Positions 118-19,592 of a stretch of 24,000 bases of DNA are shown here, one piece after another. Within the stretch, counting starts at the first letter, position 1; each line of letters starts with the position of its first letter. The DNA is taken from contig NZ_BMLW01000004.1 of the NCBI RefSeq assembly GCF_014645515.1, positions 334,805 to 358,804 on the forward strand, given 5' to 3'. The notes beneath the pieces were generated by a model, which saw nothing but the letters and a program-made list of their open reading frames with translations, had not been told where the DNA came from and made no database searches. The translations under genes were made by a program, and so were the position numbers. This stretch comes from Oceanobacillus neutriphilus. Lineage in GTDB: Bacteria; Bacillota; Bacilli; Bacillales; Amphibacillaceae.

Positions 118-1920
118 TTATTCTGCTGCCCCTTCTTCCAGCAAGCTCTTTGCCTGCTCCGGATCTGCTTTCAGCTCCAATCCGGTATCCACCAATGAAC
201 TAAGGGTAGAAACAGCCGGTAATTTATTACCTTCATAGAAGGAGATAAATTCTTCCTGATTAATAGAATATAGTACTGCTTGGCGCAATGCTACATTATC
301 AGCAAGCTCGCTATCTTCCAAATTAAAGCTCAGATAGGAAACACCGTTACTCTCGTTTTGCTGTAAGGTTAAACTATCATCCTCTTCCACTGTGTCATAA
401 CGATTCTCAGCCACACCATTCAGAATGTGAATCTCATTATTACGCAGTGCAGATAATGCACTCTCCGGATCCTGAATAAATTTCACGACTACTTCACTTA
501 TTTTAGGCTCATATTCAGATCCAGGCATATACCCGGGATTCTTCACAAAATCCGCTTCATAGTCATTTTTAGAAACCATAATGTACGGACCGCTTGCATA
601 AAGCGTGTTTTCTTCATTACTATCTTCCAGTACAGTCCGCTGATCACCGTAGGCTACATCTTCATTAACATCATAGTCTTCTACATCAAACGTATTGATA
701 CTCTCCACCTGATCCTTTGATACAATACCAGCTGACTGATGCGCAAGATAGTTTAGTACCTGCGGGAACGGATTTGCTGTTGTAATTTTTACAACCTGAT
801 AGGTTCCTGCATCATTATCCGCTTCTGTTTTATCTGTTGTTAATGAATCAATCTCTGTATCTAGTCCTTCTTCTAACGCTTGTTTAATTGTATTTCCATC
901 TACAGAAGAGGTGTCTTCTAATTCGGAAAGATCATCTACAATTTCAATTGTTTCCATACTTTCATGCAGACTGTAAGTACGATGATCCGGAACAGAATTT
1001 GGATCCTTTGCCCGTTCTAAACTGAATTGGACATCCTCTGCACCTACACGTTCACCTGTATCAGCTGCTGTATCACCATCTACCTCTGCAAAATTAATAT
1101 CGTCACGGAGTAAGAAATAAAAATCCTGGCTGCCATCCGCAATCACATGATTTAAAGAAAGCGAACCATCAGAAACGACCTCATCATCATCCGTTAAATT
1201 GACTAACCGGACATACATGTTTGTATTTAACGTGTTAATAGAACCATCATTTCCTTTAATTGGGTCTAATGATGTTAAATCACTGATTGCCTGGTGAACA
1301 AGTAAAGGCTCACTATCACGTAAGGATGTATCATTATAATCTACATTCTCCCATACTGCCGCACGTGATTTTGGCAGGCGGACTGTTTCTTCATTAATGA
1401 TATCGTGATTCACACCCTGTGCTTTTAATGAAATATAAAGCGGTGCAATATACGCCTGATCAAAAACAATTTGTTCCTCTAATTCTTTATAGGTTTCTTC
1501 ATATTCGCCCGGCAATTCGGTACTTGCTTTATCTACAAGTTCATCTGCTTTTTCATCTGCAAATAACGAATTATCACCGTCTGAGGTGAACAGAGAACGG
1601 ACAGCATAATCCGGGTTTCCGGTAACCGTTGTCCAGCTGTTAAGGGCGATATCATAATTTCCAGCATCGCGCTGTGTTGTAAAACTGCCGTAATCCGGCT
1701 GGATGTTTAATTCTACGTTAAAGCCTGTGTTTGTTAATTGATCACGTAGAATATTTACGTCATTTTCCTGTGTACTTGTTGCTAATATTTCGATGGTCGG
1801 CTGGTCTGTACCTCCACCACCGCCGCCTGAACCTTCTTCCTGAACATCAGATTCTGTACTTACACACCCTGCTAACAGTAAAGCAAGTACAAGCAGAAAA
1901 GAAAAACTCCATTTCTTCAT
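118..1920 (-). CDS. ABC transporter substrate-binding lipoprotein, peptide/nickel/opine type (SBP family 5, DppA/OppA-like); domain order appears circularly permuted
   Basis: 600-aa ORF. Signal peptide with lipobox LLAG|C (Cys19) followed by a GSGGGGGG tether. Family-5 motifs are present (..LTSLDP.., ..AEDVQFSLERAKDP.., ..ASGPYIMV.., ..DPEQAKSLLEEG) but in rotated order (see findings). Acidic residues are visibly abundant. GGGGGA RBS upstream. Lies directly downstream of two Dpp-type permease genes. Confidence 0.85.
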   Translation of the reverse strand: MKKWSFSFLLVLALLLAGCVSTESDVQEEGSGGGGGGTDQPTIEILATSTQENDVNILRDQLTNTGFNVELNIQPDYGSFTTQRDAGNYDIALNSWTTVTGNPDYAVRSLFTSDGDNSLFADEKADELVDKASTELPGEYEETYKELEEQIVFDQAYIAPLYISLKAQGVNHDIINEETVRLPKSRAAVWENVDYNDTSLRDSEPLLVHQAISDLTSLDPIKGNDGSINTLNTNMYVRLVNLTDDDEVVSDGSLSLNHVIADGSQDFYFLLRDDINFAEVDGDTAADTGERVGAEDVQFSLERAKDPNSVPDHRTYSLHESMETIEIVDDLSELEDTSSVDGNTIKQALEEGLDTEIDSLTTDKTEADNDAGTYQVVKITTANPFPQVLNYLAHQSAGIVSKDQVESINTFDVEDYDVNEDVAYGDQRTVLEDSNEENTLYASGPYIMVSKNDYEADFVKNPGYMPGSEYEPKISEVVVKFIQDPESALSALRNNEIHILNGVAENRYDTVEEDDSLTLQQNESNGVSYLSFNLEDSELADNVALRQAVLYSINQEEFISFYEGNKLPAVSTLSSLVDTGLELKADPEQAKSLLEEGAAE

Positions 1921-1947: not shown

Positions 1948-3441
1948 TTAATTTATTTTTGGATCTAACGCATCCCGCAGGCCGTCGCCTAAAAAGTTAA
2001 AGGCTAAAACCAGCAAAATAATCGCTATCCCCGGAAAAATTGCTAAATATGGTTCGGTTTCTAAATAAGCACTCCCGATACGGAGGACATTCCCCCACTC
2101 TGGAACATGAGGCTCTACGCCAAGTCCCAAAAAGCTTAAACTGCTTGTTGCAATAACCGCCCCGCCGATTGTTAAGGTAGCTTTGACAATCATCGGAGCA
2201 AAAGCATTTGGAATAGCATGCTTCGTCAGAATCTTCCAATCCGATTCTCCCAATGCTTTGGCTGCTTCAATATATTCTAAATTCGATACCATTAAAATAT
2301 TGGCCCGCATCGTTCTTGCATAAATCGGAATCGATCCAATGCTTAGAGCAATGATTAAATTGATCGTACTGGAACCAAATGCTGCGATAATGGCAATTGC
2401 TAATAAAATCCCGGGAATGGCATACAAAGCATCCATCACACGCATAATGACCTGATCGGTAGCTTTATAATAATAGCCTGCCAGTGCCCCTAGCAATCCG
2501 CCAATAATCATTGGAATAATCGTTGTCAATAAACCAATGACTAAGGAAATCCTTGCTCCGAAAATAATTCTGGAAAATACATCACGGCCGAAATTATCCG
2601 TTCCAAATGGATGCACAAAGCTTGGCCCCTGCAGCAGAGAGCTATAATCATTTGCTGTTGCAAAGCTTGTTACAAACGTACCAAAGCTGGTAATGGATAT
2701 TGAAAAGGTAAAGATAACAAATAATAAACCAATCATTGCTGTAAAGCTTTTACCCAGTTTTATCCAGAAAAATCGCCATTTATCAATAACTGACTGGTCT
2801 TTCTTAGATATTTTTAACAGGATACTGTAAGCAAGAATTAAACGGAATATATTTCCTGTTAACGTGGCAATAAATAAAAATACAGCTAGCAGACGCAATG
2901 ATTTTTTCTCTTCTAATGAAGCATCATCCTGCCGATAAAAGAAAATTACCAAGGCAATATCAATAATTAATAATGCCAGTAAAATACCCATAGATAACAT
3001 AAAATGATTAGATACATAGGCTTTAAATAAATTCAACGATGTAACCGCAATAATAAGAAAATCTGTAATGAGCATATAATATGCAAATGTATATTCAATA
3101 GATGTGTTCTTCTTTAAAAGCCGAAAAGCAAATGTTGCTGTAAAAACATTTCCGCAGACTAACGACAGAACCTGTACTGCAGCCAGCATACGTGTACGAT
3201 TCCTGATTTCTCCTGTTTTCAATAAATCTTTACGTAATAAAAGCACGATGAAAAGCTGATATAAGCTGTTTATCAAAAAGATAACGGTAAAAATGCTAAA
3301 AACAGAGTGAAATGTATTCGTGCTAAAATCATAGCTGTTGAACAGAAAAATCAACGTTAATACGATCGATATAACAAATGCAAAGTGACCGTGTTTATAC
3401 AGGTCGGATCGCTTTAAAGACTGTAGATTAGCATAATTCAT
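1948..3441 (-). CDS. ABC transporter permease, DppC/OppC-like, with ~215-residue multi-TM N-terminal extension
   Basis: 497-aa ORF. The C-terminal ~280 aa are a canonical DppC-type core (HPFGTDNFGRDVFSRIIFGARISL, YIEAAKALGESDWKILTKHAIPN, FNFLGDGLRDALDPK). The preceding ~215 aa contain about six hydrophobic helices. GAGAGG RBS 5 nt upstream of the ATG. Confidence 0.85.
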   Translation of the reverse strand: MNYANLQSLKRSDLYKHGHFAFVISIVLTLIFLFNSYDFSTNTFHSVFSIFTVIFLINSLYQLFIVLLLRKDLLKTGEIRNRTRMLAAVQVLSLVCGNVFTATFAFRLLKKNTSIEYTFAYYMLITDFLIIAVTSLNLFKAYVSNHFMLSMGILLALLIIDIALVIFFYRQDDASLEEKKSLRLLAVFLFIATLTGNIFRLILAYSILLKISKKDQSVIDKWRFFWIKLGKSFTAMIGLLFVIFTFSISITSFGTFVTSFATANDYSSLLQGPSFVHPFGTDNFGRDVFSRIIFGARISLVIGLLTTIIPMIIGGLLGALAGYYYKATDQVIMRVMDALYAIPGILLAIAIIAAFGSSTINLIIALSIGSIPIYARTMRANILMVSNLEYIEAAKALGESDWKILTKHAIPNAFAPMIVKATLTIGGAVIATSSLSFLGLGVEPHVPEWGNVLRIGSAYLETEPYLAIFPGIAIILLVLAFNFLGDGLRDALDPKIN

Positions 3442-3458: not shown

Positions 3459-4871
3459 CTAACTATTCTTCATTTGCGAACGGATACGCGGATTCAGCAT
3501 CGCATAAACAAGATCTACAATTAAATTAACAATCGAAATGGTAATAGCGATATAAACGACTCCCGCAAGAATTGCCGGTGTGTCAGGAATAAATTGTTTA
3601 TCTACAATATAGCTTCCTAAACCGCTGATATTAAAAACTTTTTCCGTTACGGCTGCTCCGCCGAGCATCCCGCCAAACTGCAGCCCAATAACTGTCAAAA
3701 TAGGAATCCAGGCATTTCTCAGCGCATGACCGATAAATGTCTCTCTTCCAGTTAACCCTTTTGCTTTTGCCGTAATCATATAATCCTCATTCATGACCTC
3801 CAGCATAGAGGAACGAGTCATTCTGGCTATCGCTGCAGCGAGCCCTGTTCCTAATACAACAATCGGCATAATCAGCGATAAAAAGTTCCCCGGTGAATAA
3901 CTTGACGGCAGGAGATCTCCCTGAATCGAAAAGGTGAGAATAAAAATAAGACCTTGCCAAAAGCTCGGGATAGATAAGCCGATCAGAGCAATGAACATAA
4001 ACGTATAATCCCAAAATGAATTAACACGTGCTGCCGAAATCATTCCTACCGGCACAGCGATAATAACTGCCAGAATAAGAGAAGAAATCGCTAAAGTAAG
4101 TGTCACTGGAAAACGGTTTGAAATACTATTCATAATCACTTCATTACCTGTATAAGAATGCCCTAAATCAAATGTCAGAATACCGCTTAAAGCATGCCAT
4201 AACTGCACGAAATAAGACTGATCCAGGCCATACTGGATATTAAAAGCATCCCGCTGCGCCTGTGTAGCAGACTCACCCAATATATTGGCAGCCGCATCGG
4301 ATGGCGAAATATACAGAATGGTAAATACAATCACGATAACAGAAATAATTACAAAGAACGTCATAACAACTCGTTCAAATACAAAACGCCTAAAGGCACC
4401 TTGATAAATAAAGTACATACTATAAGCTAAAATCCCCGGAATGAACGTAGGTATGAGGAAACGCTTATCCAGTAAAAGACCGTGGAAAAATTCCATATAA
4501 TTCATCGGCTTTCTTGCCTCTGACCCAAGTTCATTTTCCACCATTGCTTCTGAACGCTTCCTGAGCTGCCGCTGAACAATTTTTTCTTTTTCTGTCTCTT
4601 TTATCGGGCGCCGGAAGTAAGCCTGCTTTTTATCATATTGTTTTTCATAATCGCTTTTTAAAGCTGCATATGCTTTTGATTTCATAAAATTATGCATTTT
4701 TTCCTTAAACAAAGCATCATATGTATTAGACTTTCTTTTACTGAAATAGATACAGAGAGCAATTATATGAATTGGAAACCCGATTAAAAATTGAATCCAT
4801 CTCAGAAAGACCTGACGATGAACAATCAAAAAACCGCGGGATAACACATTCTCGGATATTGAATTTGACAA
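3459..4871 (-). CDS. ABC transporter permease, DppB/OppB-like, with ~150-residue N-terminal extension
   Basis: 470-aa ORF. Canonical DppB-type core from about residue 150 (..ISPSDAAANILGES.., ..ITAKAKGLTGRETFIGHALRNAWIPILTV.., C-terminal ..DLVYAMLNPRIR). TTG start with a GGGAG RBS about 11 nt upstream, so the start is less certain than the frame. Confidence 0.8.
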   Translation of the reverse strand: MSNSISENVLSRGFLIVHRQVFLRWIQFLIGFPIHIIALCIYFSKRKSNTYDALFKEKMHNFMKSKAYAALKSDYEKQYDKKQAYFRRPIKETEKEKIVQRQLRKRSEAMVENELGSEARKPMNYMEFFHGLLLDKRFLIPTFIPGILAYSMYFIYQGAFRRFVFERVVMTFFVIISVIVIVFTILYISPSDAAANILGESATQAQRDAFNIQYGLDQSYFVQLWHALSGILTFDLGHSYTGNEVIMNSISNRFPVTLTLAISSLILAVIIAVPVGMISAARVNSFWDYTFMFIALIGLSIPSFWQGLIFILTFSIQGDLLPSSYSPGNFLSLIMPIVVLGTGLAAAIARMTRSSMLEVMNEDYMITAKAKGLTGRETFIGHALRNAWIPILTVIGLQFGGMLGGAAVTEKVFNISGLGSYIVDKQFIPDTPAILAGVVYIAITISIVNLIVDLVYAMLNPRIRSQMKNS

Positions 4872-4970: not shown

Positions 4971-5249
4971 ATTAATTTTACTGACTTTGAGTGCTCTTCC
5001 GGACAGATTTCATAGAGTAAGAGCTTACTAATTTTAAAGTCTTAAAATTAATTGTAATAACATTACATACTTCCTGTTATATATATGTATATATTCAGAG
5101 TCTTGTTTATTCACCCTGAAAAAAATTATTCACACATATTTTATCGAAATGGCAATTTTTCTTATATTTTTATCAGGCTAAATGTTCTGCTGCTCTGGTG
5201 TACAGGGATATATAATAAATCAAATATTTAATTAAATGGAGATATGATA

Positions 5250-6959
5250 ATGAAAGACATATTAAGCGTTAAAAATTTATCTGTTCATTTTCAGACTACG
5301 GAGCAGAAGGTTCAGTCCGTTAATCAAATTTCTTTCTCCGTGAAAAAAGGAGAAACATTAGGTATTGTCGGCGAGTCCGGCTCCGGAAAAAGCGTTACCG
5401 CAAAAGCAATTATGCAATTACTTCCCGGCCAATCCGCGCACCTTCAAGCGGATACAATAGAATATGAAGGAAATAATCTGGCAAATTATTCTGATCATGC
5501 TATGCAGAAAATTCGCGGTCAGGAAATCAGTATGATATTTCAGGATCCAATGAGCTCCTTTAACCCGACAATGAAAATCGGTAAGCAAATTGATGAAGTA
5601 GTCAGCAAACACCGCAAGCTTTCTGCACATAAAGCAAAAGAAGAAACGATTGAAATGCTGAAGCTGGTCGGAATAACCTCACCCGAAGAACGGTATCATC
5701 AATATCCACATGAATTCTCAGGTGGTATGCTGCAGCGTGCCATGATTGCAATGGCCTTAATCTGCCGGCCGAAGCTATTAATTGCTGATGAACCGACAAC
5801 GGCATTAGATGTGCGTATTCAGGCACAAATTCTGCAATTAATGAAAAATCTGCAGGAGAAATTTGATATGAGCATCATCTTGATTACGCATGATTTTGGG
5901 GTTGTTGCCGGTATGTGCGACCGGATTGTTGTCATGAAAGATGGAAAAATTGTTGAACAAAACGACACAGCATCCATTTTCACACAGCCCGAACACCCCT
6001 ATACACAACGGCTGCTTCATGCCCTGCCACGGATTGATCAAAAAAAGGCGAGCAGATACACGAAATCATTTCAAGATACCGAGTCCTTAATTAACGTAAA
6101 GGATTTGAAAAAGATTTTCCCATTAAAATTAGGCGGACTTGTGCATGCAGTGGATGATATTGACTTCCACATCAGACCTGGTGAAACATTAGGATTAGTA
6201 GGAGAATCCGGCTCTGGAAAATCGACGACCGGACGCCTTATTCTGCAACTGCAGCAGGCAACAGAAGGAGAAATTCTTTTCGGAGGAATGGGAATCCATG
6301 ATTTTAATCGCAAGGAACTCAAAAAGCTCCGCAGAGATGTTCAAATTATTTTCCAGGATCCGCAGGCCTCTTTAAACCCGAGAATGAAGATTCTTGATAT
6401 TATTGGTCAGCCGCTGGACATTCATAAGCTATGTAAAACAAAATCAGAAAGAAGAGCCCGGGTCGAGGAATTATTAGAGCTGGTAGGCCTGACAAAGGAA
6501 CACGCCAACAGGTATCCGCATGAATTCTCAGGAGGACAGCAGCAGCGTATTGGTATCGCCCGGGCGCTGGCTGTAAAACCGAAATTTATTGTTTGTGATG
6601 AACCGCTATCCGCTTTGGACGTTTCCATTCAATCACAGATTGTGGATTTATTAGAGGAATTGCAGGAAAAGCTTGGCCTAACCTATCTATTTATTGCACA
6701 TGACCTGGCAATGGTAAAGCATATATGTGACCGGATTGCAGTCATGTATTCCGGCAAAATTATTGAGGTGGCAGAGAGTGAAGAGCTCTATGAAAATCCA
6801 CTTCACCCATATACCAAATCACTGCTTGATGCTGTACCTATTCCAGATCCGGGGATTGAAGCGAAAAAGATCCGGGAGCATGATATTAAGACAGAAACCT
6901 ATCATTTTGAAAAAAATCGGTTAGAGGAAGTAAGACCGGAGCATTGGATGCTTGTGTAA
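5250..6959 (+). CDS. Fused double-domain ABC transporter ATP-binding protein (DppD/DppF-type, GsiA-like)
   Basis: Two complete nucleotide-binding domains: Walker A GESGSGKS twice, signatures SGGMLQR and SGGQQQR, Walker B LLIADEPTTALD and FIVCDEPLSALD. The oligopeptide-type C-terminal motif (HPYT) follows each domain. The ORF track starts at 5244, but GGAG at 5238-5241 is spaced 8 nt from the ATG at 5250 and only 2 nt from 5244. Confidence 0.9.
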   Translation: MKDILSVKNLSVHFQTTEQKVQSVNQISFSVKKGETLGIVGESGSGKSVTAKAIMQLLPGQSAHLQADTIEYEGNNLANYSDHAMQKIRGQEISMIFQDPMSSFNPTMKIGKQIDEVVSKHRKLSAHKAKEETIEMLKLVGITSPEERYHQYPHEFSGGMLQRAMIAMALICRPKLLIADEPTTALDVRIQAQILQLMKNLQEKFDMSIILITHDFGVVAGMCDRIVVMKDGKIVEQNDTASIFTQPEHPYTQRLLHALPRIDQKKASRYTKSFQDTESLINVKDLKKIFPLKLGGLVHAVDDIDFHIRPGETLGLVGESGSGKSTTGRLILQLQQATEGEILFGGMGIHDFNRKELKKLRRDVQIIFQDPQASLNPRMKILDIIGQPLDIHKLCKTKSERRARVEELLELVGLTKEHANRYPHEFSGGQQQRIGIARALAVKPKFIVCDEPLSALDVSIQSQIVDLLEELQEKLGLTYLFIAHDLAMVKHICDRIAVMYSGKIIEVAESEELYENPLHPYTKSLLDAVPIPDPGIEAKKIREHDIKTETYHFEKNRLEEVRPEHWMLV

Positions 6960-6980
6960 ACACAGATAATACTCAATAGA

Positions 6981-7022
6981 AAATCTCCAGCTATTCATTT
7001 CAGAGTAGCTGGAGATTTTTTT
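6981..7022 (+). terminator. Rho-independent terminator after the ATPase gene
   Basis: AAATCTCCAGCTA (6981-6993) pairs perfectly with TAGCTGGAGATTT (7006-7018). 12-nt loop, followed by a T-run. Confidence 0.8.
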
Positions 7023-7216: not shown

Positions 7217-8008
7217 ATGGAGATTTTACCAGCAGAAAGATTAGAGTTATTACTGGAATTTATAGATGATAAGGGAACAGTAAACATCATCGATTTAACA
7301 AATCAATTTAATGTTTCCAAGCCAACTATTTTACGGGATTTAAAAGAGTTAGAGAAACAGAATCTTATTATCCGGGTTCATGGAGGAGCTAAAAGTAAAA
7401 AATTGAAAGGGACCCGATTTGAACCCCGCCATGTTATCAAAGAACAGGAAGCCATTCAGGAGAAAGAAGAAATTGCGGAATTGGCTTTCAAACATATCCA
7501 GCCTGGGGAAACCGTTCTTCTGGATTCCGGTACAACAACCTTGCTGCTTGCTAAAAAACTCGCATTACAATGCACTGAAAATATAACAGCCATTACAAAT
7601 GACATTAAAAATGCCATGGTACTCAGTGAAAATGACCTCATAGACATCGTTGTTATCGGCGGGCAAAAGAGAAAGGGGGTGTATAGCTTAAATGGACCAT
7701 TTGCAGAAGATATGCTGCGCCAGCTCAATGTAGATAAAGTATTTTTAGGAACGGATGCTATTGATGCGGATAAAGGATTAACCAATTCCAATATTGATGA
7801 AACCAACATAAAAAAAACAATGATAGAAATTGCCAATGAAATTATCTTATTGGCGGATGACAGGAAGTTCAACCAGGTAGCATTTTCATCCGTCGCCGGG
7901 ATAGACACACTAGATAGAATTATAACGAATAAATCCTTATCCGATACGGAAATGAAAGATTACAAAAAAGCGGGGATCTCCATAGATACCCCGAAAGTAA
8001 AAAACTGA
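7217..8008 (+). CDS. sgcR: DeoR-family transcriptional regulator (SgcR-like)
   Basis: 263 aa. N-terminal HTH (VSKPTILRDLKELEKQNLIIRVHGGA) and a DeoR C-terminal sugar-phosphate sensor domain. First gene of the sgc-like operon. AAGGAG RBS, though only 3 nt from the ATG. Confidence 0.85.
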   Translation: MEILPAERLELLLEFIDDKGTVNIIDLTNQFNVSKPTILRDLKELEKQNLIIRVHGGAKSKKLKGTRFEPRHVIKEQEAIQEKEEIAELAFKHIQPGETVLLDSGTTTLLLAKKLALQCTENITAITNDIKNAMVLSENDLIDIVVIGGQKRKGVYSLNGPFAEDMLRQLNVDKVFLGTDAIDADKGLTNSNIDETNIKKTMIEIANEIILLADDRKFNQVAFSSVAGIDTLDRIITNKSLSDTEMKDYKKAGISIDTPKVKN

Positions 8009-8026
8009 AAAGAAAGGAAGTTATTG

Positions 8027-8848
8027 ATGACTTGGTTAAAAGAAGTTATTGGAACAGAAAAAGCAATTATCGCAATGTGTCACCTGCAACCCTTGCCCGG
8101 AGATCCATCCTATGACTATAAAAAAGGAATGGATTATGTCATAGAAGAGGCCCGTAAAGATTTAAAGGCATTACAGGATGGCGGTGTAGATGCAGTTATG
8201 TTTTCCAATGAATTCAGTCTTCCTTATTTAACAGAAGTAAAAACCGAAACAGTTTCTGCGATGGCCAGAGTAATCGGGGAGCTGATGAATGATATAAGAA
8301 TACCTTATGGCGTTAACGTATTATGGGATGCAAAGCGATCACTTGATTTAGCTGCTGCCACCGGGGCTCAATTTGTCCGGGAAATATTTACCGGCGTGTA
8401 TGCCAGCGACTTTGGATTATGGGATACAAACGTTGGCGAAACCGTCAGACACCAGTATCATCTGCATGCCCAGGATGTGAAGCTTCTGTTTAATATCTTG
8501 CCTGAAGCAGCAAAATATGTGGCTGATAGAGATATCAAAGATATTGCCAAGTCTACTGTATTTAATAATCGGCCCGATGCGCTTTGTGTTTCTGGATTAA
8601 CTGCCGGAGAACAGACAGATTCTCAAATCTTGAAAAAAGTAAAGGAAACTGTGCCTGATTGCGTGATACTGGCAAATACCGGAGTACGTATTGAAAACTT
8701 GGAGCAGCAGCTGGCAATTGCGGATGGTGCAGTAGTTGGAACAGCATTCAAATATGATGGAAAATTTGAAAACAGGGTTGATCAGAAACGTGTAGAAGAA
8801 TTTATGAATAAAGTAAAAGCCTTTCGCGAAACAGCTATTCAAGCTTAG
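8027..8848 (+). CDS. sgcQ: BtpA/SgcQ-family TIM-barrel protein
   Basis: N-terminus MTWLKEVIGTEKAIIAMCHLQPLPGDPSY and GGVDAVMFSNEFSLPYL closely resemble E. coli SgcQ as I recall it. ATG 8027 (or the adjacent TTG 8024) follows an AAGGAAG RBS. Confidence 0.85.
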   Translation: MTWLKEVIGTEKAIIAMCHLQPLPGDPSYDYKKGMDYVIEEARKDLKALQDGGVDAVMFSNEFSLPYLTEVKTETVSAMARVIGELMNDIRIPYGVNVLWDAKRSLDLAAATGAQFVREIFTGVYASDFGLWDTNVGETVRHQYHLHAQDVKLLFNILPEAAKYVADRDIKDIAKSTVFNNRPDALCVSGLTAGEQTDSQILKKVKETVPDCVILANTGVRIENLEQQLAIADGAVVGTAFKYDGKFENRVDQKRVEEFMNKVKAFRETAIQA

Positions 8849-8894
8849 CAATAGAGAATAACAAATCAATCTCAATTAAAGGAGAGGTCAATAT

Positions 8895-9173
8895 ATGAAA
8901 AAAGTAATCGTAGCATGTGGCGGTGGTATTGCAACTTCAACATTAATAGCGGATAAAGTCCGCCAGACACTGGATGAAGCAGGAATCGACTATCGGCTCA
9001 CACAAACCACCTTATCTGAACTAGTTTATGAGAATAGTGATGCAGACTTAATCGTGACAAGCATGAAGGTAGAATCTGACTTCGGAGTTCCTGCCCTTTC
9101 AGGAGCCGGATTCTTAACGGGAATTAACGAGGAGGCTATTAAAGAGCAAATTATAAGCGCTTTATCCGACTAA
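8895..9173 (+). CDS. sgcB: PTS galactitol-family EIIB component (SgcB/GatB-like)
   Basis: 92 aa. Active-site Cys in the VACGGGIATST motif near the N-terminus. GGAGAGG RBS. Confidence 0.9.
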   Translation: MKKVIVACGGGIATSTLIADKVRQTLDEAGIDYRLTQTTLSELVYENSDADLIVTSMKVESDFGVPALSGAGFLTGINEEAIKEQIISALSD

Positions 9174-9193
9174 AGCATAAAGGAGAGCTTAAC

Positions 9194-10537
9194 ATGCAAA
9201 GTGTTGTCGATTATATATTATCGTTAGGAGCAACCATTTTTGTCCCTATTGTTCTTTTTATAGTTGGTTTAGCATTCCGTTTAAGCATACTGAGGGCGAT
9301 TAAAGCTGCTGTAACTGTCGGTGTTGGATTTTTAGGTCTTAACTTAGTTGTCAGCTTAATAGGTGATTACCTTTCACCATCTGTCCAGACCATGGTTGAG
9401 CGGTTTGGCTTAAATTTATCTGTTATTGATTTAGGATCAGGGACCTCTGCAGGTATTGCTTTTTCAACTACTGTAGGAGCTCTTATCATCCCGATTATTT
9501 TTGGCCTAAACGTTCTTCTATTAATCAGCAAGCTTACCAAAACAATGAATATTGATATTTTCAACTACTCCCATTATGCACTGACGGGATCTGTAGTTGC
9601 CCTTATTACCTCAAATTTATTTTATGGTATTATGGCTGCAATTTCTCACGCTATCTTCTCACTTATCGTTGCTGATTTAACAGCCAAAAAAGTTCAAAAG
9701 GTTATTGGCATTGAAGGGATATCCATCAGTCAAGGGTTTGCTACTTCCACTGTCCCCTTCTATGCTTTGATGGATAAGATATTCGATAAAATACCAGCTC
9801 TGAATAATAGGAAAATGGATACAAACTTTATTCAAAAGAAATTTGGTATGTTTGGTGATCCAGTGATTATCGGAGTTATCCTGGGTGTAATCATTGCTAT
9901 ATTAGCAGGCACAAGCTTTGTGGATGGCAGCCAGCTGGTCATTGTAATCACGGGTATTATGATCCTTTTCCCGCGTGTTATCCGGATTATTGTAGAAGGA
10001 CTGATGCCCATTTCAGATGCTGCGAAAAAATTCTTTCAAACAAAATTTAAAGGCAAAGAATTTTTTATAGGATTAGACTCAGCAGTTACACTAGGCCATC
10101 CGACAACTATTACAGTAGGAATATTAATTATTCCTATTACGCTCGTCTTAGCTGCCATTCTGCCGGGCAATAAAGTGCTCCCTCTCGCAGATTTAGCCTT
10201 TGCCCCTTTCTTTATCTGTATGGCAACGATCATGCATAAGGGAGATGTTATCAGAACGCTTATCAGCTCTACAGTCAATATGGTATTAGTGCTTTATATA
10301 GCTACTTTCTTTTCTTCTTATTATACAGACTTAGCCAGCGCTGGAGGATTTATCGAATCCGCGGGGGGAACAGAAGTATCTGCATTATATATCGGGAATG
10401 TGTTTAACTTTATTATTACCATCTTAATGAGAATGGAAGTATTAGGATTTATTATCCTGGCACTATTTATTATCGTATTGTACTACTTCGTATTTAAAAA
10501 GATAAATAGAAAAGAAGAGCCTGAAAAGACATCCTAA
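9194..10537 (+). CDS. sgcC: PTS galactitol-family EIIC permease (SgcC/GatC-like)
   Basis: 447-aa polytopic membrane protein immediately after the IIB gene. Size and hydrophobic pattern match GatC/SgcC-type EIIC. AAAGGAGAG RBS. Confidence 0.85.
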   Translation: MQSVVDYILSLGATIFVPIVLFIVGLAFRLSILRAIKAAVTVGVGFLGLNLVVSLIGDYLSPSVQTMVERFGLNLSVIDLGSGTSAGIAFSTTVGALIIPIIFGLNVLLLISKLTKTMNIDIFNYSHYALTGSVVALITSNLFYGIMAAISHAIFSLIVADLTAKKVQKVIGIEGISISQGFATSTVPFYALMDKIFDKIPALNNRKMDTNFIQKKFGMFGDPVIIGVILGVIIAILAGTSFVDGSQLVIVITGIMILFPRVIRIIVEGLMPISDAAKKFFQTKFKGKEFFIGLDSAVTLGHPTTITVGILIIPITLVLAAILPGNKVLPLADLAFAPFFICMATIMHKGDVIRTLISSTVNMVLVLYIATFFSSYYTDLASAGGFIESAGGTEVSALYIGNVFNFIITILMRMEVLGFIILALFIIVLYYFVFKKINRKEEPEKTS

Positions 10538-10572
10538 AATCGTTATCTAAAAGCTCTACTGGAGGTTCTGGA

Positions 10573-11061
10573 ATGAATCACAATAAAAACAGAAACAAAT
10601 TAAAATTTGATAAAGATATGATTATGCTGAATATCTGTGCTAGTTCATCGGATGAATTATTGAAGGAATTAAGTCAACTATTCTATGACAAAGATTACGT
10701 GCATGATTCTTTTAAACAAGCAATCATAAAACGTGAAGAAAAATATCCGACCGGACTGAGGACGACTTCCGCAGGCGTCGCTATTCCACATGCAGATCCA
10801 GTCCATGTGAAGCAGGAAAGCTTAGCTGTAGGAATCTTAAAAGATGCAGTTACCTTTCATGAAATGACTTCAGGTGAACCTCTAAACGTGGAAATCGTTT
10901 TTATGTTAGGAATTACTGATTCGGGTCAGCATTTAATCATGCTGAAAGCACTTTCTGAAATATTGAGAGACAAAGAAAAATTAACGAGCATTCGAAATGC
11001 AGCTACAAAAGAGGAAGTCTTTCAATGTATCCTTCCTTATATAAATGAATTATTAGAATAA
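10573..11061 (+). CDS. sgcA: PTS EIIA component, fructose/mannitol (EIIA-2) family (SgcA-like)
   Basis: 162 aa. Phosphorylatable His in the ..GVAIPHAD.. motif. GGAGG RBS 7 nt upstream. Confidence 0.85.
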   Translation: MNHNKNRNKLKFDKDMIMLNICASSSDELLKELSQLFYDKDYVHDSFKQAIIKREEKYPTGLRTTSAGVAIPHADPVHVKQESLAVGILKDAVTFHEMTSGEPLNVEIVFMLGITDSGQHLIMLKALSEILRDKEKLTSIRNAATKEEVFQCILPYINELLE

Positions 11062-11085
11062 ACAGGCAGGAGGCTTTGAATAAAG

Positions 11086-11769
11086 TTGAAAAAACGAATC
11101 CTGGCTCCGTCCATTTTAAACGCTGATTTTTTACATTTAAGCAGTGAAATTGATATCGCTGAAAAAGGCGGAGCGGAATTTTTACATTTGGATGTGATTG
11201 ATGGTGTATTTGCGCCCAGTATTTCATTTGGTGCTAATATAATCTACTCGATAAGAACCTATACAAATCTGTTTTTGGATGTTCATTTAATGATTGAAAA
11301 TCCAAGCCAATATATAGCTGATTTTGTCCGTGCCGGTGCAGACAGCATTACTGTTCATGCAGAGGGAGCCATTCATTTGCACAGGCTAATCAATCTAATA
11401 AAAGAGCATGGTATAAAAGCAGGCGTTGCTTTAAACCCTGCGACACCCATTTCTTTGATAGAACCTATCTTATCAGACATTGATATGGTACTCCTAATGA
11501 CCGTAAATCCCGGTTTCGGAGGACAGCCCTTTATTAAAGAAGTTTTATCAAAGTTAACAATGCTGAGCCATTTAAAATCCAGCAGAGAATATTCTTTTGC
11601 TATCGAAGTCGATGGCGGAATTACCCCGCAAGAAGCATTATGGTGCTCTCAGCGGGGAGCAAATATCTTTGTTGTCGGATCGTATATCTATTATAAAGAA
11701 ACCGAAACAAAAAAATTACAAGCAATGAAAAATATAAAAAAGTCTTTAGAAACAGGTGATTCAAAATGA
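11086..11769 (+). CDS. sgcE: Ribulose-phosphate 3-epimerase family protein (SgcE-like paralog)
   Basis: 227 aa. Rpe motifs APSILNADF, HLDVIDGVF, LDVHLM, MTVNPGFGGQ, EVDGGI. TTG start with an AGGAGG RBS 12 nt upstream. Confidence 0.85.
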   Translation: MKKRILAPSILNADFLHLSSEIDIAEKGGAEFLHLDVIDGVFAPSISFGANIIYSIRTYTNLFLDVHLMIENPSQYIADFVRAGADSITVHAEGAIHLHRLINLIKEHGIKAGVALNPATPISLIEPILSDIDMVLLMTVNPGFGGQPFIKEVLSKLTMLSHLKSSREYSFAIEVDGGITPQEALWCSQRGANIFVVGSYIYYKETETKKLQAMKNIKKSLETGDSK

Positions 11770-12860
11770 ATATGAACGAACATCTGAAGGCATTATCCAT
11801 GATAAATGCTGTCAGTTCACAAGAAGATCCAGTCATTGATTATATGTATAATTATTTTTCTAAACAAATGGAGTACGTTGAAGTGGATACAATAGGCAAC
11901 GTGATCGGATTCTTACCTTCTAACAATCCAAATAGCAAAAGAATAATGATTTTTGCCCATATGGATGAAGTAGGATTTATAGTAAGACATATTGATGAAA
12001 ATGGTTTCTTATTTTTTGAACGAATCGGCGGCGCTAATGTGAATGTTCTTCCCGGTAATCAGCTTCAGGTACTCGGAGATAAAGGAACAGTCACCGGAGT
12101 TATTGGAACAAAGGCATATCATTTCTTAAAACCCGAAGAAAAAGGGAGATTTCCTGCACAAGATCAGCTATATATTGATATTGGCGCTGCCTCTAAAGAA
12201 GAGGCACATCAGAAAGGCGTACAGGTTGGAAGCACAATCTGCTTTCAGGCAAACTATCTTGAAAGAGAAAATGGATGGATAACAGGAAAAGCGATGGATA
12301 ATCGGGTTGCCTGCACTATTTTATTAGAATTAGCAGAACAACTAAGTTCATCTCCAGCACCCTTAGAATGGGATATATATCTGGTTGCATGTGTTCAGGA
12401 GGAATTTAATATCAGAGGTGTCCTGCCGGCAGTAAGGAAGATAAAACCGCATGTCTCTATCGGTTTAGATGTAACACCAGCTTGTGATACACCCGAACTG
12501 ACAAATTATTCTGATGTTGGCTTAGATAAAGGTCCCGCACTTACATTTCTTAATTATCATGGAAAAGGAACACTTGCCGGCGTGTTGCCAGATTCAAATT
12601 TAATACAATCTCTGATAAAGACCTGCCAAGTAAATAGAATTAACTACCAGAGAGAGGTAGCTGTAGGGGTCATCACAGAGAATGCTTATATTGTTTTCGA
12701 AGAAGCCGGCATCGCTACCGCAAACGTTTCCATCCCGACACGCTATACACATACACCGGTAGAAACAGTCAGCCTTCAGGACGTGAAACAAACCATTCAC
12801 TTACTATATGAATTTTTGACAAGCTTAACAGAAGAAAGCACTTTTGGAAAAGCAAGGTAG
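11766..12860 (+). CDS. sgcX: M42-family metallopeptidase-like protein (SgcX/FrvX/YpdE-like; sometimes annotated as endoglucanase)
   Basis: 364 aa. M42 metal-ligand motifs are intact by eye: HMDEVGF, GKAMDNR, VQEEFNIRG, GLDVTPA, RYTHTPVE. The start overlaps the epimerase stop (ATGA, 11766-11769). AGGTGA RBS. Confidence 0.85.
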   Translation: MNMNEHLKALSMINAVSSQEDPVIDYMYNYFSKQMEYVEVDTIGNVIGFLPSNNPNSKRIMIFAHMDEVGFIVRHIDENGFLFFERIGGANVNVLPGNQLQVLGDKGTVTGVIGTKAYHFLKPEEKGRFPAQDQLYIDIGAASKEEAHQKGVQVGSTICFQANYLERENGWITGKAMDNRVACTILLELAEQLSSSPAPLEWDIYLVACVQEEFNIRGVLPAVRKIKPHVSIGLDVTPACDTPELTNYSDVGLDKGPALTFLNYHGKGTLAGVLPDSNLIQSLIKTCQVNRINYQREVAVGVITENAYIVFEEAGIATANVSIPTRYTHTPVETVSLQDVKQTIHLLYEFLTSLTEESTFGKAR

Positions 12861-12869
12861 GTTATAGAT

Positions 12870-13661
12870 ATGCAGATAAAGAACCATGATTATAAAGTTT
12901 GTTTTCTGGATATTGATGGCACACTGGTTGATAACAATAAGCAAATTTCTAATCAAACCAAGAAATCTCTGGATCAAATAAGAAATAAAGGCGTAGAAGT
13001 GATTATTGCTACCGGACGTCCTCCCTATCACTTTTTCAGCATTGCAGAGGAACTAATGATTAATTCATTTGTCAGTTTTAACGGTGCTTACTCTGTTTAT
13101 AAAGGAGAAGTCGTTCATAAGCATGGAATGGATACATCTGCTCTGCAGGAACTCATTGAATATGCTGGTATGAAGCAACATCCATTAGTTTTTTCAAGTG
13201 AAAAGAAGTCTGTCAGTAATACACTTAATCATCATGAAATTATCCAGACCTTTAAAGACTTGCATTTGAATTATAAACCAGAATATAATCCTGATTATTG
13301 GAAGAAATCACTCCTGTTCCAGGCTATGGTATATTGCAAAGATGAAGAAGAAATCGATTATATTCAAAAATTTCCTGAGTTATCTTTTGTCAGATGGCAT
13401 GAAATTGCCATTGATGTCATGCCTCAATCCATTTCAAAAGCATATGGCATTAAAGAAATGCTTCAGTTTTTAAATGTTGCTCCTGAAGAAGCTATCGCTT
13501 TTGGAGATGGACTGAATGATAAGGAAATGCTGGATTTTGTAGGTGTAGGAATTGCGATGGAAAATGCACATGAGGACCTCTATCCTTATGCAGATATCAT
13601 TACAAAATCAAATGAAAATGATGGAATTACACATGGTTTGAAGCTGTTAAATCTGCTATAG
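12870..13661 (+). CDS. Cof-type HAD-IIB sugar phosphatase
   Basis: 263 aa. HAD motif I FLDIDGTL, motif IV GDGLNDKEML, and a Cof-type cap region. Starts 9 nt after the M42 gene, behind an AAGGTAGG RBS. Confidence 0.85.
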   Translation: MQIKNHDYKVCFLDIDGTLVDNNKQISNQTKKSLDQIRNKGVEVIIATGRPPYHFFSIAEELMINSFVSFNGAYSVYKGEVVHKHGMDTSALQELIEYAGMKQHPLVFSSEKKSVSNTLNHHEIIQTFKDLHLNYKPEYNPDYWKKSLLFQAMVYCKDEEEIDYIQKFPELSFVRWHEIAIDVMPQSISKAYGIKEMLQFLNVAPEEAIAFGDGLNDKEMLDFVGVGIAMENAHEDLYPYADIITKSNENDGITHGLKLLNLL

Positions 13662-13992: not shown

Positions 13993-14030
13993 AGCTTATA
14001 AACAAGTGCAACATGAGAGGAGCCTATGAA

Positions 14031-15344
14031 ATGAAAGGCAAAATCACAGAAAAGTTATTCAAATTAAATGCTAATCAAACAAATGTCCGAACAGAATTTA
14101 TAGCAGGACTGACTGTATTTATGACAATGCTGTACGTATTGATCGTGGTACCGGGTATGTTGGAGGAAGCAGGGATGCCCAAAGGTCCTGTAACAGTTTC
14201 CGTTATTCTGATGACTGGTGTTATTACAATAATAATGGGATTATACAGCAACAGGCCTTTTGCGCTTGCGCCGGGTCTCGGGTCTGTCGCCTTTCTCGCA
14301 ATAACCTTGGCTAGCGCAGAAGGAATTCCATGGCAAGTAGGCATGGGAATGGTTTTTATTTCCGGAGTTATATTTGTATTATTTACAGTTCTGGGGCTGC
14401 GACAGCTTATTGTAAAGTTAATGCCTCCTGCAATTAAACTATCCATTGGTGCAGGTGTAGGGTTATTTATTGCATTAATTGGTTTTCGAAATGCCGGACT
14501 AGTTGTGGCAAGCGAAGATGCTAATGCACTCCAGCTTGGGGATATTGGATCACCGAATGCGATTTTGGCTTTAATCGGATTTTTAATTATGAGTGTACTA
14601 TTAGCAAGAAATGTCCGCGGCCACTTACTGATAGGTATGGTAATCGTCACAATTATTGGTATACCAATGGGAGTTACAACGGTTCCGGATAAGATTTTTT
14701 CTTTGCCGGAAAGCGTCTCTCCAATTGCGTTTGAATTAGATATTATGGGAGCATTAAAATTAGCATACTTCCCATTAATCCTGGCCTTTTTTATCCCGGA
14801 TTTCTTCTCCAGTCTGGGTACGATGCTCGGAGTTGGAAGTAAAGGAAATATGCTGGATAAGAACGGAAACCTGCCAAATATTGATAAACCTTTCTCTGTC
14901 GATGCTGGCGGTACGGTGCTAGGTTCCCTGTTCTCTGTACCAGTCATGACAACTTATGTTGAATCAGCAGCTGGAGTAGAAGCCGGCGGACGAACTGGAT
15001 TAACTTCCGTAACTACAGGATTTTTATTCTTATTAACATTGTTTATTACACCTGTCATTATGATTATTCCAACAGAAGCTACTGCACCAGCCTTAATATT
15101 AGTTGGTTTGACGATGCTCTCTGCAGTACGCAATATAGATTTCAGTGATGTAACAGAATCACTGCCAGCATTTATGACAATCGTTATTACTATCTTTACC
15201 TTTAACTTTGGTAACGGAATTGCTGCCGGCATTATCATCTTTGTTGTACTTAAGCTTCTTTCCGGAAGACATAAAGAATTACATTGGGGTCTATATATTT
15301 TACTGATACCGCTAATTTTATATTTCATATCATTAGCAAATTAA
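14031..15344 (+). CDS. NCS2/AzgA-family purine permease (adenine/hypoxanthine/guanine; PbuG/PbuO-like)
   Basis: About 437-aa polytopic protein of the PbuG/AzgA type, next to adenine deaminase. The ORF track starts at 14013, but the GAGAGGAG RBS (14015-14022) lies inside that extension and is spaced 8 nt from ATG 14031 (MKGKITEK..). Confidence 0.85.
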   Translation: MKGKITEKLFKLNANQTNVRTEFIAGLTVFMTMLYVLIVVPGMLEEAGMPKGPVTVSVILMTGVITIIMGLYSNRPFALAPGLGSVAFLAITLASAEGIPWQVGMGMVFISGVIFVLFTVLGLRQLIVKLMPPAIKLSIGAGVGLFIALIGFRNAGLVVASEDANALQLGDIGSPNAILALIGFLIMSVLLARNVRGHLLIGMVIVTIIGIPMGVTTVPDKIFSLPESVSPIAFELDIMGALKLAYFPLILAFFIPDFFSSLGTMLGVGSKGNMLDKNGNLPNIDKPFSVDAGGTVLGSLFSVPVMTTYVESAAGVEAGGRTGLTSVTTGFLFLLTLFITPVIMIIPTEATAPALILVGLTMLSAVRNIDFSDVTESLPAFMTIVITIFTFNFGNGIAAGIIIFVVLKLLSGRHKELHWGLYILLIPLILYFISLAN

Positions 15345-15368
15345 TCTATTACGTCGGGAGTTGGTCAT

Positions 15369-17129
15369 TTGTTTACAAGAGAAAAAATTGTATCCGCAGC
15401 AAGAGGCGATACTAATATGGATACAGTCATACGTGAAGTAAATCTGGTGAATGTATTTACCGCAGAAATATATAAAGCAGATATCGGTGTAAAGGAAAAC
15501 CGGTTTGCAGCTGTAGCACAATATAAAGATAATAAGCCTTCTTTCCAAATGAATGGAGATAATGAAATTGATGCGAAAGGAAAATATGCGATTCCGGGAT
15601 TAATCGATTGTCATGTCCATATTGAAAGTACAATGATTACGCCAGACATGTTTGCACGGGAAGTTCTCAGGCACGGGACAACCGTCGCTGTCATTGACCC
15701 GCATGAAATCGGTAATGTAATGGGTACAGAAGGGGTAAAATACATGATAGACGCAAGTAAGGATTTACCCGTAGATATTCTTACTACCATTCCATCCTGT
15801 GTACCTGCAGTTCCTGATCTGGAAACAGCCGGAGCTGAATTCCATCCGGAGGATATTGAAGAAATGCTGCAATTGCCCAATGTAGTCGGCATTGCTGAAT
15901 TAATGGACTATGTCGGTGTAATCAAACAACACCCAAGAATGGCCGGCATTGTTCAAAAAGGATTAGAAGCAGGCGTGCGAAACGAAGGGCATCTGCCAAG
16001 AGTATACGGCAGTGACCTCGCCGCTTACTTAGCAGCCGGAGTCGATTCAGACCACGAAAGCCGGGCGACCGATGAAATTTTAGAAAAGCTGCGAGCTGGG
16101 ATGCTAATTTATATCAGGGAATCCAGCATCAGCCAATTTGCTGATATCGCGGCAGAAGCTTGGAAGGAAGTACCTTATGTCAGCAACATTGCTATGTGTA
16201 CGGACGATGTAGAACCAAACGATATGTTAAAAAATGGTCAAATGAACCGTGTCGTCAGACGTTGTATTGAAGAAGGAATTCCGGCACCATTAGCAGTCCG
16301 TTACGGGTCCCTGAACGGAGCAATACGCTATGGTTTAAGAGACCGGGGAGCAATTGCAGCCGGATATCGTGCTGATTTTTCATTAGTTGATTCTATAGAA
16401 AAAATGGATGTTACAGATGTGTTTGTAGAAGGCAAGCAAATGGTGAAAAATGGAGAACTGACGGAGACAATTACCAGCAGTGTCCCTCCATTATTAAGAA
16501 ACACCGTACAAATTCCAGTGTTAACGGAAGAGGATTTATTAATCAAGGCACCGTTTGAACAAGGTACTGCCACCTTAAATACTATGGAGATGCAGCTAAA
16601 TGGTACAACCGCAAAAGGAACAGTAAATGTTAATGTTGCAGACGGTATGATTCAGGAGCTTCCTGATAATTACGCGTTTGTAAGTGTCATCGGCAGACAC
16701 GGTCAAAATAAGAAACCATTTGTAGGTGTCATTAAAAATTCAGGACTTCGTCATGGAGCATACGCAACAACCATTGCTCATGACAGTCATAATTTAGTTG
16801 TAGCCGGTACAAATGCAAAAGATATGTTAATTGCTGTCAAACAGCTTGAGCAGTCAGGCGGCGGATTATGCCTTGTAAAGGATACAGAAGTACAGGCACA
16901 ATTAGATCTTCCATTAGCAGGCTTGATGTCACCAGAACCCGTAGAAGAAATTGCTGTAAAAGTAGAGCATTTCAATGAAACGGCAAAATCAATGGGAGTA
17001 AAAGTTGGAAGGCGCTCTCCTGCAATGGCCTTTTCATCACTCACGCTAACTGTTATACCTGAAATTCGGATATCTGATGTAGGTTTAGTTGATGTGTATC
17101 ATCAGGAATTGCTTCCTTTATTTGTTTAG
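15369..17129 (+). CDS. ade: Adenine deaminase
   Basis: 586 aa. Amidohydrolase metal-binding motifs DCHVHIES, DPHEIGNV and AHDSHNLVVAG typical of Ade/AdeC. TTG start 8 nt after GGGAG. Begins 24 nt after the permease gene. Confidence 0.9.
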   Translation: MFTREKIVSAARGDTNMDTVIREVNLVNVFTAEIYKADIGVKENRFAAVAQYKDNKPSFQMNGDNEIDAKGKYAIPGLIDCHVHIESTMITPDMFAREVLRHGTTVAVIDPHEIGNVMGTEGVKYMIDASKDLPVDILTTIPSCVPAVPDLETAGAEFHPEDIEEMLQLPNVVGIAELMDYVGVIKQHPRMAGIVQKGLEAGVRNEGHLPRVYGSDLAAYLAAGVDSDHESRATDEILEKLRAGMLIYIRESSISQFADIAAEAWKEVPYVSNIAMCTDDVEPNDMLKNGQMNRVVRRCIEEGIPAPLAVRYGSLNGAIRYGLRDRGAIAAGYRADFSLVDSIEKMDVTDVFVEGKQMVKNGELTETITSSVPPLLRNTVQIPVLTEEDLLIKAPFEQGTATLNTMEMQLNGTTAKGTVNVNVADGMIQELPDNYAFVSVIGRHGQNKKPFVGVIKNSGLRHGAYATTIAHDSHNLVVAGTNAKDMLIAVKQLEQSGGGLCLVKDTEVQAQLDLPLAGLMSPEPVEEIAVKVEHFNETAKSMGVKVGRRSPAMAFSSLTLTVIPEIRISDVGLVDVYHQELLPLFV

Positions 17130-17385: not shown

Positions 17386-17733
17386 ATTAATTATATCCTC
17401 TCATGTGTAATACTTCTTAAAATGGGTATTAATTCTATAGGCAGATTTTTTCAGCAGCTTAATTAGGTATTCATGCATACAGTTGTTTGTATGCTGAACT
17501 AACCTAAGGAATGGTCTGAAAATAGACAGTAGATGCTCTCTCTATAAAAAAGCATACATAGAACTTCAGTAAAAAAGATCACTATCTTACCGAAAAAATC
17601 TCTATACACTTTATTTTAAATTGAAGCTATTTGACTTACAATAAGATATATTGAAAGGGACACGTATGACAAATGAAGGCTACGTATGACATAATAGATT
17701 TATTTGAAGAATGTAACTAAAGTGGGTGTGGAA

Positions 17734-19497: not shown

Positions 19498-19512
19498 GTC
19501 TACTTTTTAGAA

Positions 19513-19574: not shown

Positions 19575-19592
19575 CAAAAACAGCAAGCTTAG

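Follow-up and report, generated by a model that had tools for sequence, protein, structure and literature searches.

A naturally permuted cluster-C binding lipoprotein in a predicted Gis-type ABC importer of Oceanobacillus neutriphilus

We investigated a four-gene cassette at one end of a 24,000-nucleotide stretch of the Oceanobacillus neutriphilus genome (hereafter the window), in which the gene at positions 118-1920 of the reverse strand encodes a family-5 (cluster C) substrate-binding protein (SBP) with a rotated chain order. The described system that it most resembles is GisABCD-Ggt, the glutathione importer of Staphylococcus aureus and a transporter of the ATP-binding cassette (ABC) type. 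In S. aureus, gisA is divergent from gisBCD-ggt, GisD is a lipoprotein, and GisB and GisC have nine predicted transmembrane regions each. S. aureus gisD mutants fail on glutathione disulfide (GSSG) or low glutathione (GSH), the genetic evidence being from S. aureus alone. The S. aureus gene rlp (SA0201), whose product has the legacy name 'RGD-containing lipoprotein', lies in a locus under sulfur regulation, beside the genes for one ATPase and two permeases. S. aureus GisD carries the labels Rlp, SAUSA300_0203 and ABD22752.1. SA0201 appears to be the GisD of GisABCD-Ggt, by a locus-tag mapping (with the four-gene layout and the sulfur regulation) that is made in neither paper. Permutation or topology is not mentioned in the Gis papers cited here.

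Two further sets of proteins provide points of comparison. The canonical family-5 proteins (DppA, OppA, GsiB/YliB, HbpA, NikA) have what is probably the same fold as the window protein, are homologous to it over the whole mature chain, and work with permeases and ATPases of the same class; the window chain differs in being rotated, in an 8-residue joint, in an insertion in domain II and, by our reading, in an anchor on domain III. Natural permutation is known from the Treponema pallidum protein Tp0684 (TpMglB-2), a glucose-binding lipoprotein of cluster B with a permuted chain, and the class 'Type Ic / Cluster Bc' was proposed for it. Its permutation creates a fourth crossing of the hinge, and identity between the permuted part and the canonical counterpart is 13% (PMC4990184). 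Most Tp0684 homologs come from organisms whose binding proteins are tethered, and its authors raised an adaptation to anchoring as a possibility (PMC4990184). Tp0684 and the window protein are both natural permuted ABC binding lipoproteins, with Tp0684 homologs in spirochetes and Gram-positives and a Spirochaetota metagenome-assembled genome (MAG) in the clade of the window protein. In contrast, Tp0684 is a cluster-B, type I, sugar-binding protein without family-level homology to the window protein, so that the resemblance is one of analogy; the window protein has clear homology in its relocated block and would keep two hinge crossings. We found no MglB-type cluster-B homology in the window protein, whose sequence and structure neighbours were all cluster-C. 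Our literature search, which most subscription journals lay outside, found no natural circular permutation in a family-5/cluster-C binding protein, and the permuted cluster-C topology is real and apparently an undescribed variant of a well-known fold.

The rotated chain of the binding protein

The open reading frame (ORF) at 118-1920 on the reverse strand encodes a DppA/OppA-type protein whose chain has been cleanly circularly permuted. This had been claimed in a first-pass annotation of the window, and was borne out by sequence and profile matches, a rotation control, natural relatives and a confident structural model. The parts of the protein are listed below; pLDDT is the predicted local distance difference test score of an AlphaFold2 model, and P0157 is an unpermuted relative described further on.

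118-1920, reverse strand: gene for the permuted family-5 (cluster C) SBP lipoprotein, GisD-like, 600 residues plus stop (ORF and PF00496)
1864-1920, reverse strand: signal peptide and lipobox, residues 1-19 (..LLLAG-C19; read from the sequence; pLDDT below 50)
1798-1863, reverse strand: flexible acidic Gly-rich tether, residues 20-41, VSTESDVQEEGSGGGGGGTDQP (composition; AlphaFold2 disorder)
1330-1797, reverse strand: relocated block, residues 42-197, the canonical C-terminal third (template matches; pLDDT ~88-97)
1306-1329, reverse strand: joint TSLRDSEP, residues 198-205, from the old C-terminus to the old mature N-terminus (P0157 mapping; pLDDT 90-97)
121-1305, reverse strand: canonical N-terminal two thirds, residues 206-600, ending ..DPEQAKSLLEEGAAE (matches to DppA and P0157)

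The residue-to-nucleotide conversions of the first-pass annotation (residues 42-197 at 1330-1797, and 204-600 at 121-1311) were correct, and the lipobox cysteine and glycine tether that it placed in the 600-residue ORF are present, as LLAG-C19 and GSGGGGGG (residues 30-37). C19 is invariant in our alignments A1, A2 and A4, and the Pfam profile LPAM_1 gave a weak match to the signal region (E 0.37). PF00496 matched at 142.4 bits against a cut-off of 32.4 (E 2.6e-41). The best stretch of this match was partial, with query residues 267-597 on profile positions 19-276 of 368, and covered about two thirds of the protein.

Two non-collinear matches had been predicted for a permuted chain, and were obtained against PDB chains, the Pfam profile and a canonical relative. 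In PDB chain 5u4o, residues 201-315 were matched by query 443-560 (independent E-value, i-E, 2.4e-07) and residues 379-489 by query 55-161 (i-E 3.3e-05). E. coli DppA was matched in three stretches (query 235-345 to 32-135, 470-598 to 207-339, and 74-156 to 383-470), and a profile of 42 orthologs matched HbpA (6ofq) in the same cyclic order (213-336 to 40-162, 441-594 to 211-366, and 44-160 to 377-500). Residues 42-197 map to template positions ~345-517 (MppA 354-486, 5u4o 379-489, HbpA 377-500, P0157 358-518). Against the canonical P0157, the window protein gave two high-scoring segment pairs in rotated order, with E-values of 2.7e-39 and 3e-21 and 31-33% identity, in which query 206-600 aligns to P0157 41-361. 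The alignments place the new termini in the loop that follows the '..DPExAKxLLxEAG' helix.

As a control, we joined residues 198-600 and then 38-197 in silico. The un-permuted sequence matched PF00496 in one stretch spanning profile positions 19-367 of 368, at 153.1 bits, and aligned to residues 201-489 of 5u4o as one 69.9-bit match, which continues across the artificial junction ..LLEEGAAE|TDQPTIEIL... The native chain thus does not follow the collinear family-5 block order, and becomes collinear with PDB chains, Pfam and canonical relatives only once rotated in silico.

An AlphaFold2 model built from a 60-sequence alignment (32-77% identity) reached a pLDDT of 90.8 and a predicted template-modelling score of 0.87, compared with a pLDDT of 70 from a shallow alignment of orthologs only. 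The better model is a single globule in which the sole disordered segment is residues 1-37 (signal peptide and tether), and the joint region has a pLDDT of 90-97. The top 50 Foldseek matches in the PDB were all cluster-C proteins (GsiB/YliB, DppA, HbpA2, GbpA, NikZ, OppA, MppA, SapA). The order-dependent alignments extended over 300-445 columns, with template-modelling scores of at most 0.45 when normalised to the query and at most 0.54 when normalised to the target, which is the outcome expected when a sequence-order-dependent aligner meets a rotated chain.

In mature numbering, DppA is composed of domain I (1-33, 183-262 and 479-507), domain II (34-182) and domain III (263-478). By alignment to these boundaries, the relocated block would comprise the second half of domain III (42 to ~165) and the last domain-I segment (~166-197), after which the chain would pass through the joint (198-205) and onward through domains I, II and I (~206-525), ending in the first part of domain III (~526-600). 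Residues 206-600 would accordingly cover domain I, domain II and the first part of domain III. The number of hinge crossings would stay at two, with domains I and II forming one continuous stretch and domain III split between the ends of the chain, and the lipid anchor would hang from domain III, where canonical proteins have it on domain I. An effect of the moved anchor on how the protein meets the permease, as proposed in the first-pass annotation, is not required by the data. Compared with canonical proteins and with basal permuted members (542-556 residues), domain II is enlarged by an insertion of ~50-100 residues; this insertion, at residues 336-441 (nt 598-915), is modelled confidently.

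We investigated the distribution of the permuted order in genomes and in protein clusters. A 100% identical protein is annotated in Oceanobacillus neutriphilus, and full-length orthologs with 64-91% identity occur across many Bacillales genera. A locus scan of species-representative genomes with alignment A1 returned 433 matching stretches, and the best 80, which we inspected, were full length in every case (62-98% identity); they came from Oceanobacillus, Gracilibacillus, Amphibacillus, Halolactibacillus, Neobacillus, Cytobacillus, Sporosarcina, Psychrobacillus, Viridibacillus, Paenibacillus and other genera. In an exhaustive search of 1.84 billion representatives at 50% identity, ~35 full-length representatives matched in one collinear stretch over residues ~1-600, at identities down to 31%, while canonical proteins of 500-550 residues matched the permuted query in two to four rotated stretches. 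A profile of divergent members retrieved at least 1,364 clusters at E <= 1e-30, including Clostridia (Proteiniborus, Tissierella, Alkaliphilus, Paraclostridium) and Brevibacillus. Further members were found in Negativibacillus, in Mammaliicoccus, and in MAGs of Spirochaetota and of Psychrilyobacter (Fusobacteriota). Throughout the permuted clade, the joint is constant in length and conforms to a conserved motif (Y/F-x-D-x-S-x-x-x-T/S-R/E-P), and the motifs WTTVTGNPDY and LDPIKGNDGS are invariant in members from Bacilli and Clostridia.

The transporter cassette and its likeness to Gis

The permuted SBP gene is the last of a permB-permC-SBP operon, and Opp/Dpp-type permeases and an oligo_HPY-type ATPase are encoded beside it, as is characteristic of family 5. 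The remaining features of the cassette are as follows.

1948-3441, reverse strand: permease C, GisC-like, 497 residues, BPD_transp_1 at residues 314-496
2797-3441, reverse strand: N-terminal extension of permease C, ~215 residues, six hydrophobic segments (hydropathy)
3459-4871, reverse strand: permease B, GisB-like, 470 residues, BPD_transp_1_N and BPD_transp_1 at residues 162-464
4392-4871, reverse strand: N-terminal extension of permease B, ~160 residues
4942-4970, reverse strand: candidate sigma-70-type promoter of the permB-permC-SBP operon, TTGACA-17-TATAAT, 12/12 (pattern match in a consensus scan)
5244-6959, forward strand: divergent fused double ATPase, GisA-like, 571 residues, two ABC domains
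6978-7021, forward strand: candidate intrinsic terminator 3' of the ATPase gene, 19-bp stem and T run (consensus scan)

The likeness to the S. aureus system extends to layout and to protein size. In both, a fused ATPase is divergent from permB-permC-SBP, the SBP is a lipoprotein of ~590-600 residues, and both permeases exceed the usual six transmembrane segments; they differ in that ggt belongs to the gis operon and does not lie beside the window cassette. The extensions of the window permeases had no similarity in Pfam or the PDB. The best NCBIfam matches of permease C and the ATPase were GsiD and GsiA, both below cut-off, as were all matches across the cassette to the GsiA/C/D, Opp2B/C nickel, NikA, DppA and SapA families; the SBP itself scored 49 bits with DppA and 29 bits with OppA, far under the cut-offs.

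The name 'RGD-containing lipoprotein' is attached in UniRef to an ortholog of the window protein, P0062. A further permuted member, P0132 (593 residues), has an RGD at residue 558 and aligns collinearly with the window SBP over its full length. Its locus (L168; 31% GC) encodes a fused ATPase (531 residues) divergent from permB (443), permC (388), the SBP and Ggt (667). The window proteins are 39% (SBP), 48% (permease C), 43% (permease B, over its full length) and 49% (ATPase) identical to their counterparts at this locus, from which the window differs in a permease C longer by ~100 N-terminal residues. As all four proteins are 39-49% identical and the layout is shared, we assign the window cassette to the Gis-type transporters on sequence grounds, and the GisD of S. 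aureus is very probably permuted as well. The same cassette without ggt occurs in the Mammaliicoccus member. A scan of viral contigs with P0132 gave no match, and Rfam identified no riboswitch or regulatory RNA in the window.

Among the 80 inspected loci, the cassette with extended permeases and divergent ATPase was found in 79, the remaining one being cut by a contig end, and no flanking gene was common to more than 10 of the 80. In one locus (L086:1200-2807), a divergent family-5 gene of canonical order (535 residues) lies just upstream of the extended permeases and the permuted gene ends the operon; one translocator might here serve canonical and permuted receptors. The basal permuted operon of P0297 (L082:2310-3950) adjoins genes for KduI, a short-chain dehydrogenase and a GntR regulator (uronate/pectin catabolism), which hints at a different substrate in the basal lineage.

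Elsewhere in the window, a sugar phosphotransferase cluster resembling sgc lies at 7217-13661 on the forward strand (DeoR regulator, BtpA/SgcQ, EIIC-GAT, EIIA), and also encodes a ribulose-phosphate 3-epimerase, an M42 peptidase and a Cof-type HAD hydrolase; its adjacency to the cassette is not kept in other genera. It is followed at 14013-17129, on the same strand, by genes for a xanthine/uracil-family permease and an adenine deaminase. The region 17704-23853 encodes a PrpR_N/sigma-54 activator, a KdgT permease, a protein of the four-carbon acid sugar kinase type (SBD_N and NBD_C) and a dehydrogenase of the PdxA family; a class II aldolase is encoded on the other strand.

Origin of the permutation and a second case

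The closest unpermuted relative that we identified is P0157, a protein of 519 residues in canonical order from a Bacillota MAG. It shares the motifs LTSFDPAKANDGS and GWTTVT.NPDYA with the permuted proteins, to which it is 31-38% identical over both segments, and is distinguished from them by its normal chain order, by an SBP gene placed first in a classic A-B-C-D-F operon, by permeases of 316 and 301 residues and by two separate ATPases. Against the permuted P0158 its identity is 38% in both segments (P0158 188-538 to P0157 32-357, and 42-184 to 375-518). Residue 518 of P0157 corresponds to residue 184 of P0158 and residue 32 to residue 188, so that the end of the canonical chain maps within three residues of the position in P0158 where its mature start is taken up.

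We compared permuted and canonical proteins in neighbour-joining trees of un-permuted sequences with 200-300 bootstraps, using Poisson distances in one tree. Permuted orthologs had been expected to form a clade, and did so with a support of 0.86, and of 0.71 and 0.56 as more sequences were added. The clade that also contains P0157 was recovered at 0.99-1.0, apart from ~61 other canonical representatives, and the earliest permuted branch consists of P0158 and P0161. The position of the permuted clade next to a canonical sister fits one permutation event within this lineage.

The operon layouts along these lineages were as follows, with protein lengths in brackets.

Canonical sister, P0157: SBP, B (316), C (301), D, F
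Basal permuted, P0297 and P0294: B (311/315), C (286/311), D, F, permuted SBP
P0142 and P0302: B (476/470), C (506), D, F, permuted SBP
P0304 and the window: fused divergent ATPase, B (480/470), C (506/497), permuted SBP

Neither the canonical sister nor the basal permuted lineage has the permease extensions, which occur in the P0142 lineage and those that follow it. The earlier suggestion that permuted SBPs always accompany extended permeases holds for the crown group (79 of 80 loci) and fails for the basal lineage, with permeases of 286-315 residues. The layouts give an order of changes in which the permutation, with the gene at the operon end, came first, the permease extensions second, and the fusion and inversion of the ATPase last.

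The permutation itself may have arisen by tandem duplication, in-frame fusion and trimming. Tandem family-5 genes on the same strand exist in metagenome loci. We additionally identified a protein of 1,137 residues (P0253; JGI, Logan and ENA contigs) in which one full canonical family-5 unit follows another head to tail (91-564 and 658-1133); it is a fused intermediate of the type that a duplication route needs, but lies outside the permuted lineage. Three other candidates for fusion intermediates, L099 (4621-8163) and L109/L113 (4789-8121), were rejected, as each consists of two separate genes with a signal peptide apiece; these tandem canonical genes share a frame with one stop codon between them, and yield a tblastn match with a permuted query that is deceptively 'collinear'.

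Permuted proteins with termini in the same loop were also found outside this lineage. P0244 (529 residues, from a single Logan contig) ends ..YDPERARELLIEAGYLESAD, and L118p (L118:9-1829), a complete lipoprotein of 601 residues, ends ..YDPELSKQLLAEAGYPDGL.., with copies at 82% identity on three more metagenome contigs (L142, L143 and L145; JGI and NCBI), so that the L118 type is known from four samples. Both carry lipoboxes. They grouped with the main permuted clade in 0 of 200 bootstraps, and instead nest with canonical DppA-like proteins at 37-44% identity, with a group support of 0.81. This nesting shows at least one further, independent permutation at the same loop in another family-5 lineage; as both proteins are on long branches, a single event or two may lie behind them. 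Of 80 metagenome loci whose matches to P0244 seemed collinear, 70 were rejected as further cases, being canonical genes matched in rotated order.

Interpretation and significance

The best overall explanation of these results, to which we assign a probability of about 0.8, is that the window encodes the permuted cluster-C SBP of an ABC importer of the Gis type (Opp/Dpp class, type I). Four gene products would make up this importer, namely the divergently encoded fused ATPase, two permeases whose N-termini carry additional membrane segments, and the permuted SBP, which would act as a normal Venus-flytrap receptor docking on the permeases. The permutation may have been functionally near-neutral, since the permeases of the earliest permuted lineage are unmodified. 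Glutathione, glutathione disulfide or a related small peptide is the predicted substrate, which is the weakest step of the argument. Several points weigh against this explanation or parts of it. The membership of GisD rests on the architecture of L168, the legacy name and locus-tag mapping, and the transfer of substrate from Gis rests on an SBP identity of 39%. No ggt was found in the window or beside the cassette in 87 other loci (L001-L087). In DppA, R383 and D436 (precursor numbering) hold the peptide termini; these peptide-terminus residues, conserved in the DppA/OppA subfamily, align in the window protein with E52 (present in 28 of 34 diverse members) and V99. Finally, the trees are neighbour-joining trees on p-distances, in which support for the permuted clade falls to 0.56 in the largest set.

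It might be argued that there is no permutation at all, and that the ORF joins an unrelated N-terminal domain to a truncated family-5 protein, or is an assembly artefact, pseudogene or tandem-gene chimera, given that the best Pfam stretch is limited to profile positions 19-276 and that tandem same-frame family-5 genes occur elsewhere. Homology, rotation, conservation and the model refute this reading, which we regard as vanishingly improbable: the canonical C-terminal block shows significant homology to residues 42-197, a Pfam match of full length is regained on rotation, the modelled chain forms one confident globule, and the ORF is unbroken, identical in an NCBI genome and full length in all 80 inspected genomes. 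The nature of the substrate is much less secure, and the chance that the cassette is a Gis homolog importing something other than glutathione (another small peptide, a metal chelate, an opine-like compound or an oligosaccharide) falls only a little short of even. The low SBP identity to the Gis-type locus, the absence of ggt beside all 87 non-staphylococcal loci, NCBIfam matches that are all under their cut-offs, the loss of the DppA peptide-terminus residues, and a basal permuted locus adjoining KduI and a short-chain dehydrogenase (uronate metabolism) are all consistent with such a substrate. In contrast, the homology of four proteins to the gis-type locus within a common divergent fused-ATPase architecture, the best partial matches of ATPase and permease C to the glutathione system of E. 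coli, and the invariance of WTTVTGNPDY and LDPIKGNDGS in Bacilli and Clostridia, which suggests a conserved ligand, argue against it.

A further alternative concerns the reason for the permutation, which would be adaptive if an anchor on domain III improved the reach or docking of a tethered SBP and the permease extensions co-evolved with it. Every permuted lineage found encodes a lipoprotein, with C19 invariant and lipoboxes in P0244 and L118p, and Tp0684, the only other natural permuted binding protein that we found in the literature, is likewise a lipoprotein whose authors raised the possibility of an anchoring adaptation (PMC4990184). At least one independent permutation used the same loop, and the crown group invariably has extended permeases (79 of 80 loci). 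However, the basal permuted lineage has permeases of normal size, indicating that the extensions are not required by the permutation, and a flexible tether of ~22 residues would soften any effect of geometry. Being a lipoprotein is also a trait of the canonical sister and of many canonical relatives, and reuse of the same loop may mark where the fold tolerates new termini. We therefore consider an adaptive origin unlikely. More doubtful still is a broader proposal, in which permutation at this loop would be a recurrent, selected solution for tethered cluster-C SBPs (at least two origins, parallels with Tp0684, and transfer of the anchor to the other lobe) that enabled or drove, in the Gis lineage, a new, unannotated N-terminal membrane module of both permeases handling the re-anchored receptor.

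The permuted Gis-type SBP has consequences for how the family is classified and used. Cluster-C proteins rank with the most thoroughly studied receptors of bacteria. Their classification assumes one chain topology, which is rotated in a natural clade that spans hundreds of species and at least 1,364 protein clusters. Annotation is affected, as profile tools give a partial match alone. With an unpermuted sister, later changes that can be traced, and recurrence, the family offers a clean natural case study of how a permutation arises and is fixed, and its cut site, an evolution-tested position for new termini, could help the design of biosensors on this scaffold. The Gis-type family has one genetically characterised member, the S. 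aureus Gis importer, which is a factor in nutrient-sulfur acquisition and intracellular fitness. As the family apparently includes GisD, the rotated order would bear on the modelling, alignment, truncation for crystallography and engineering of that protein.

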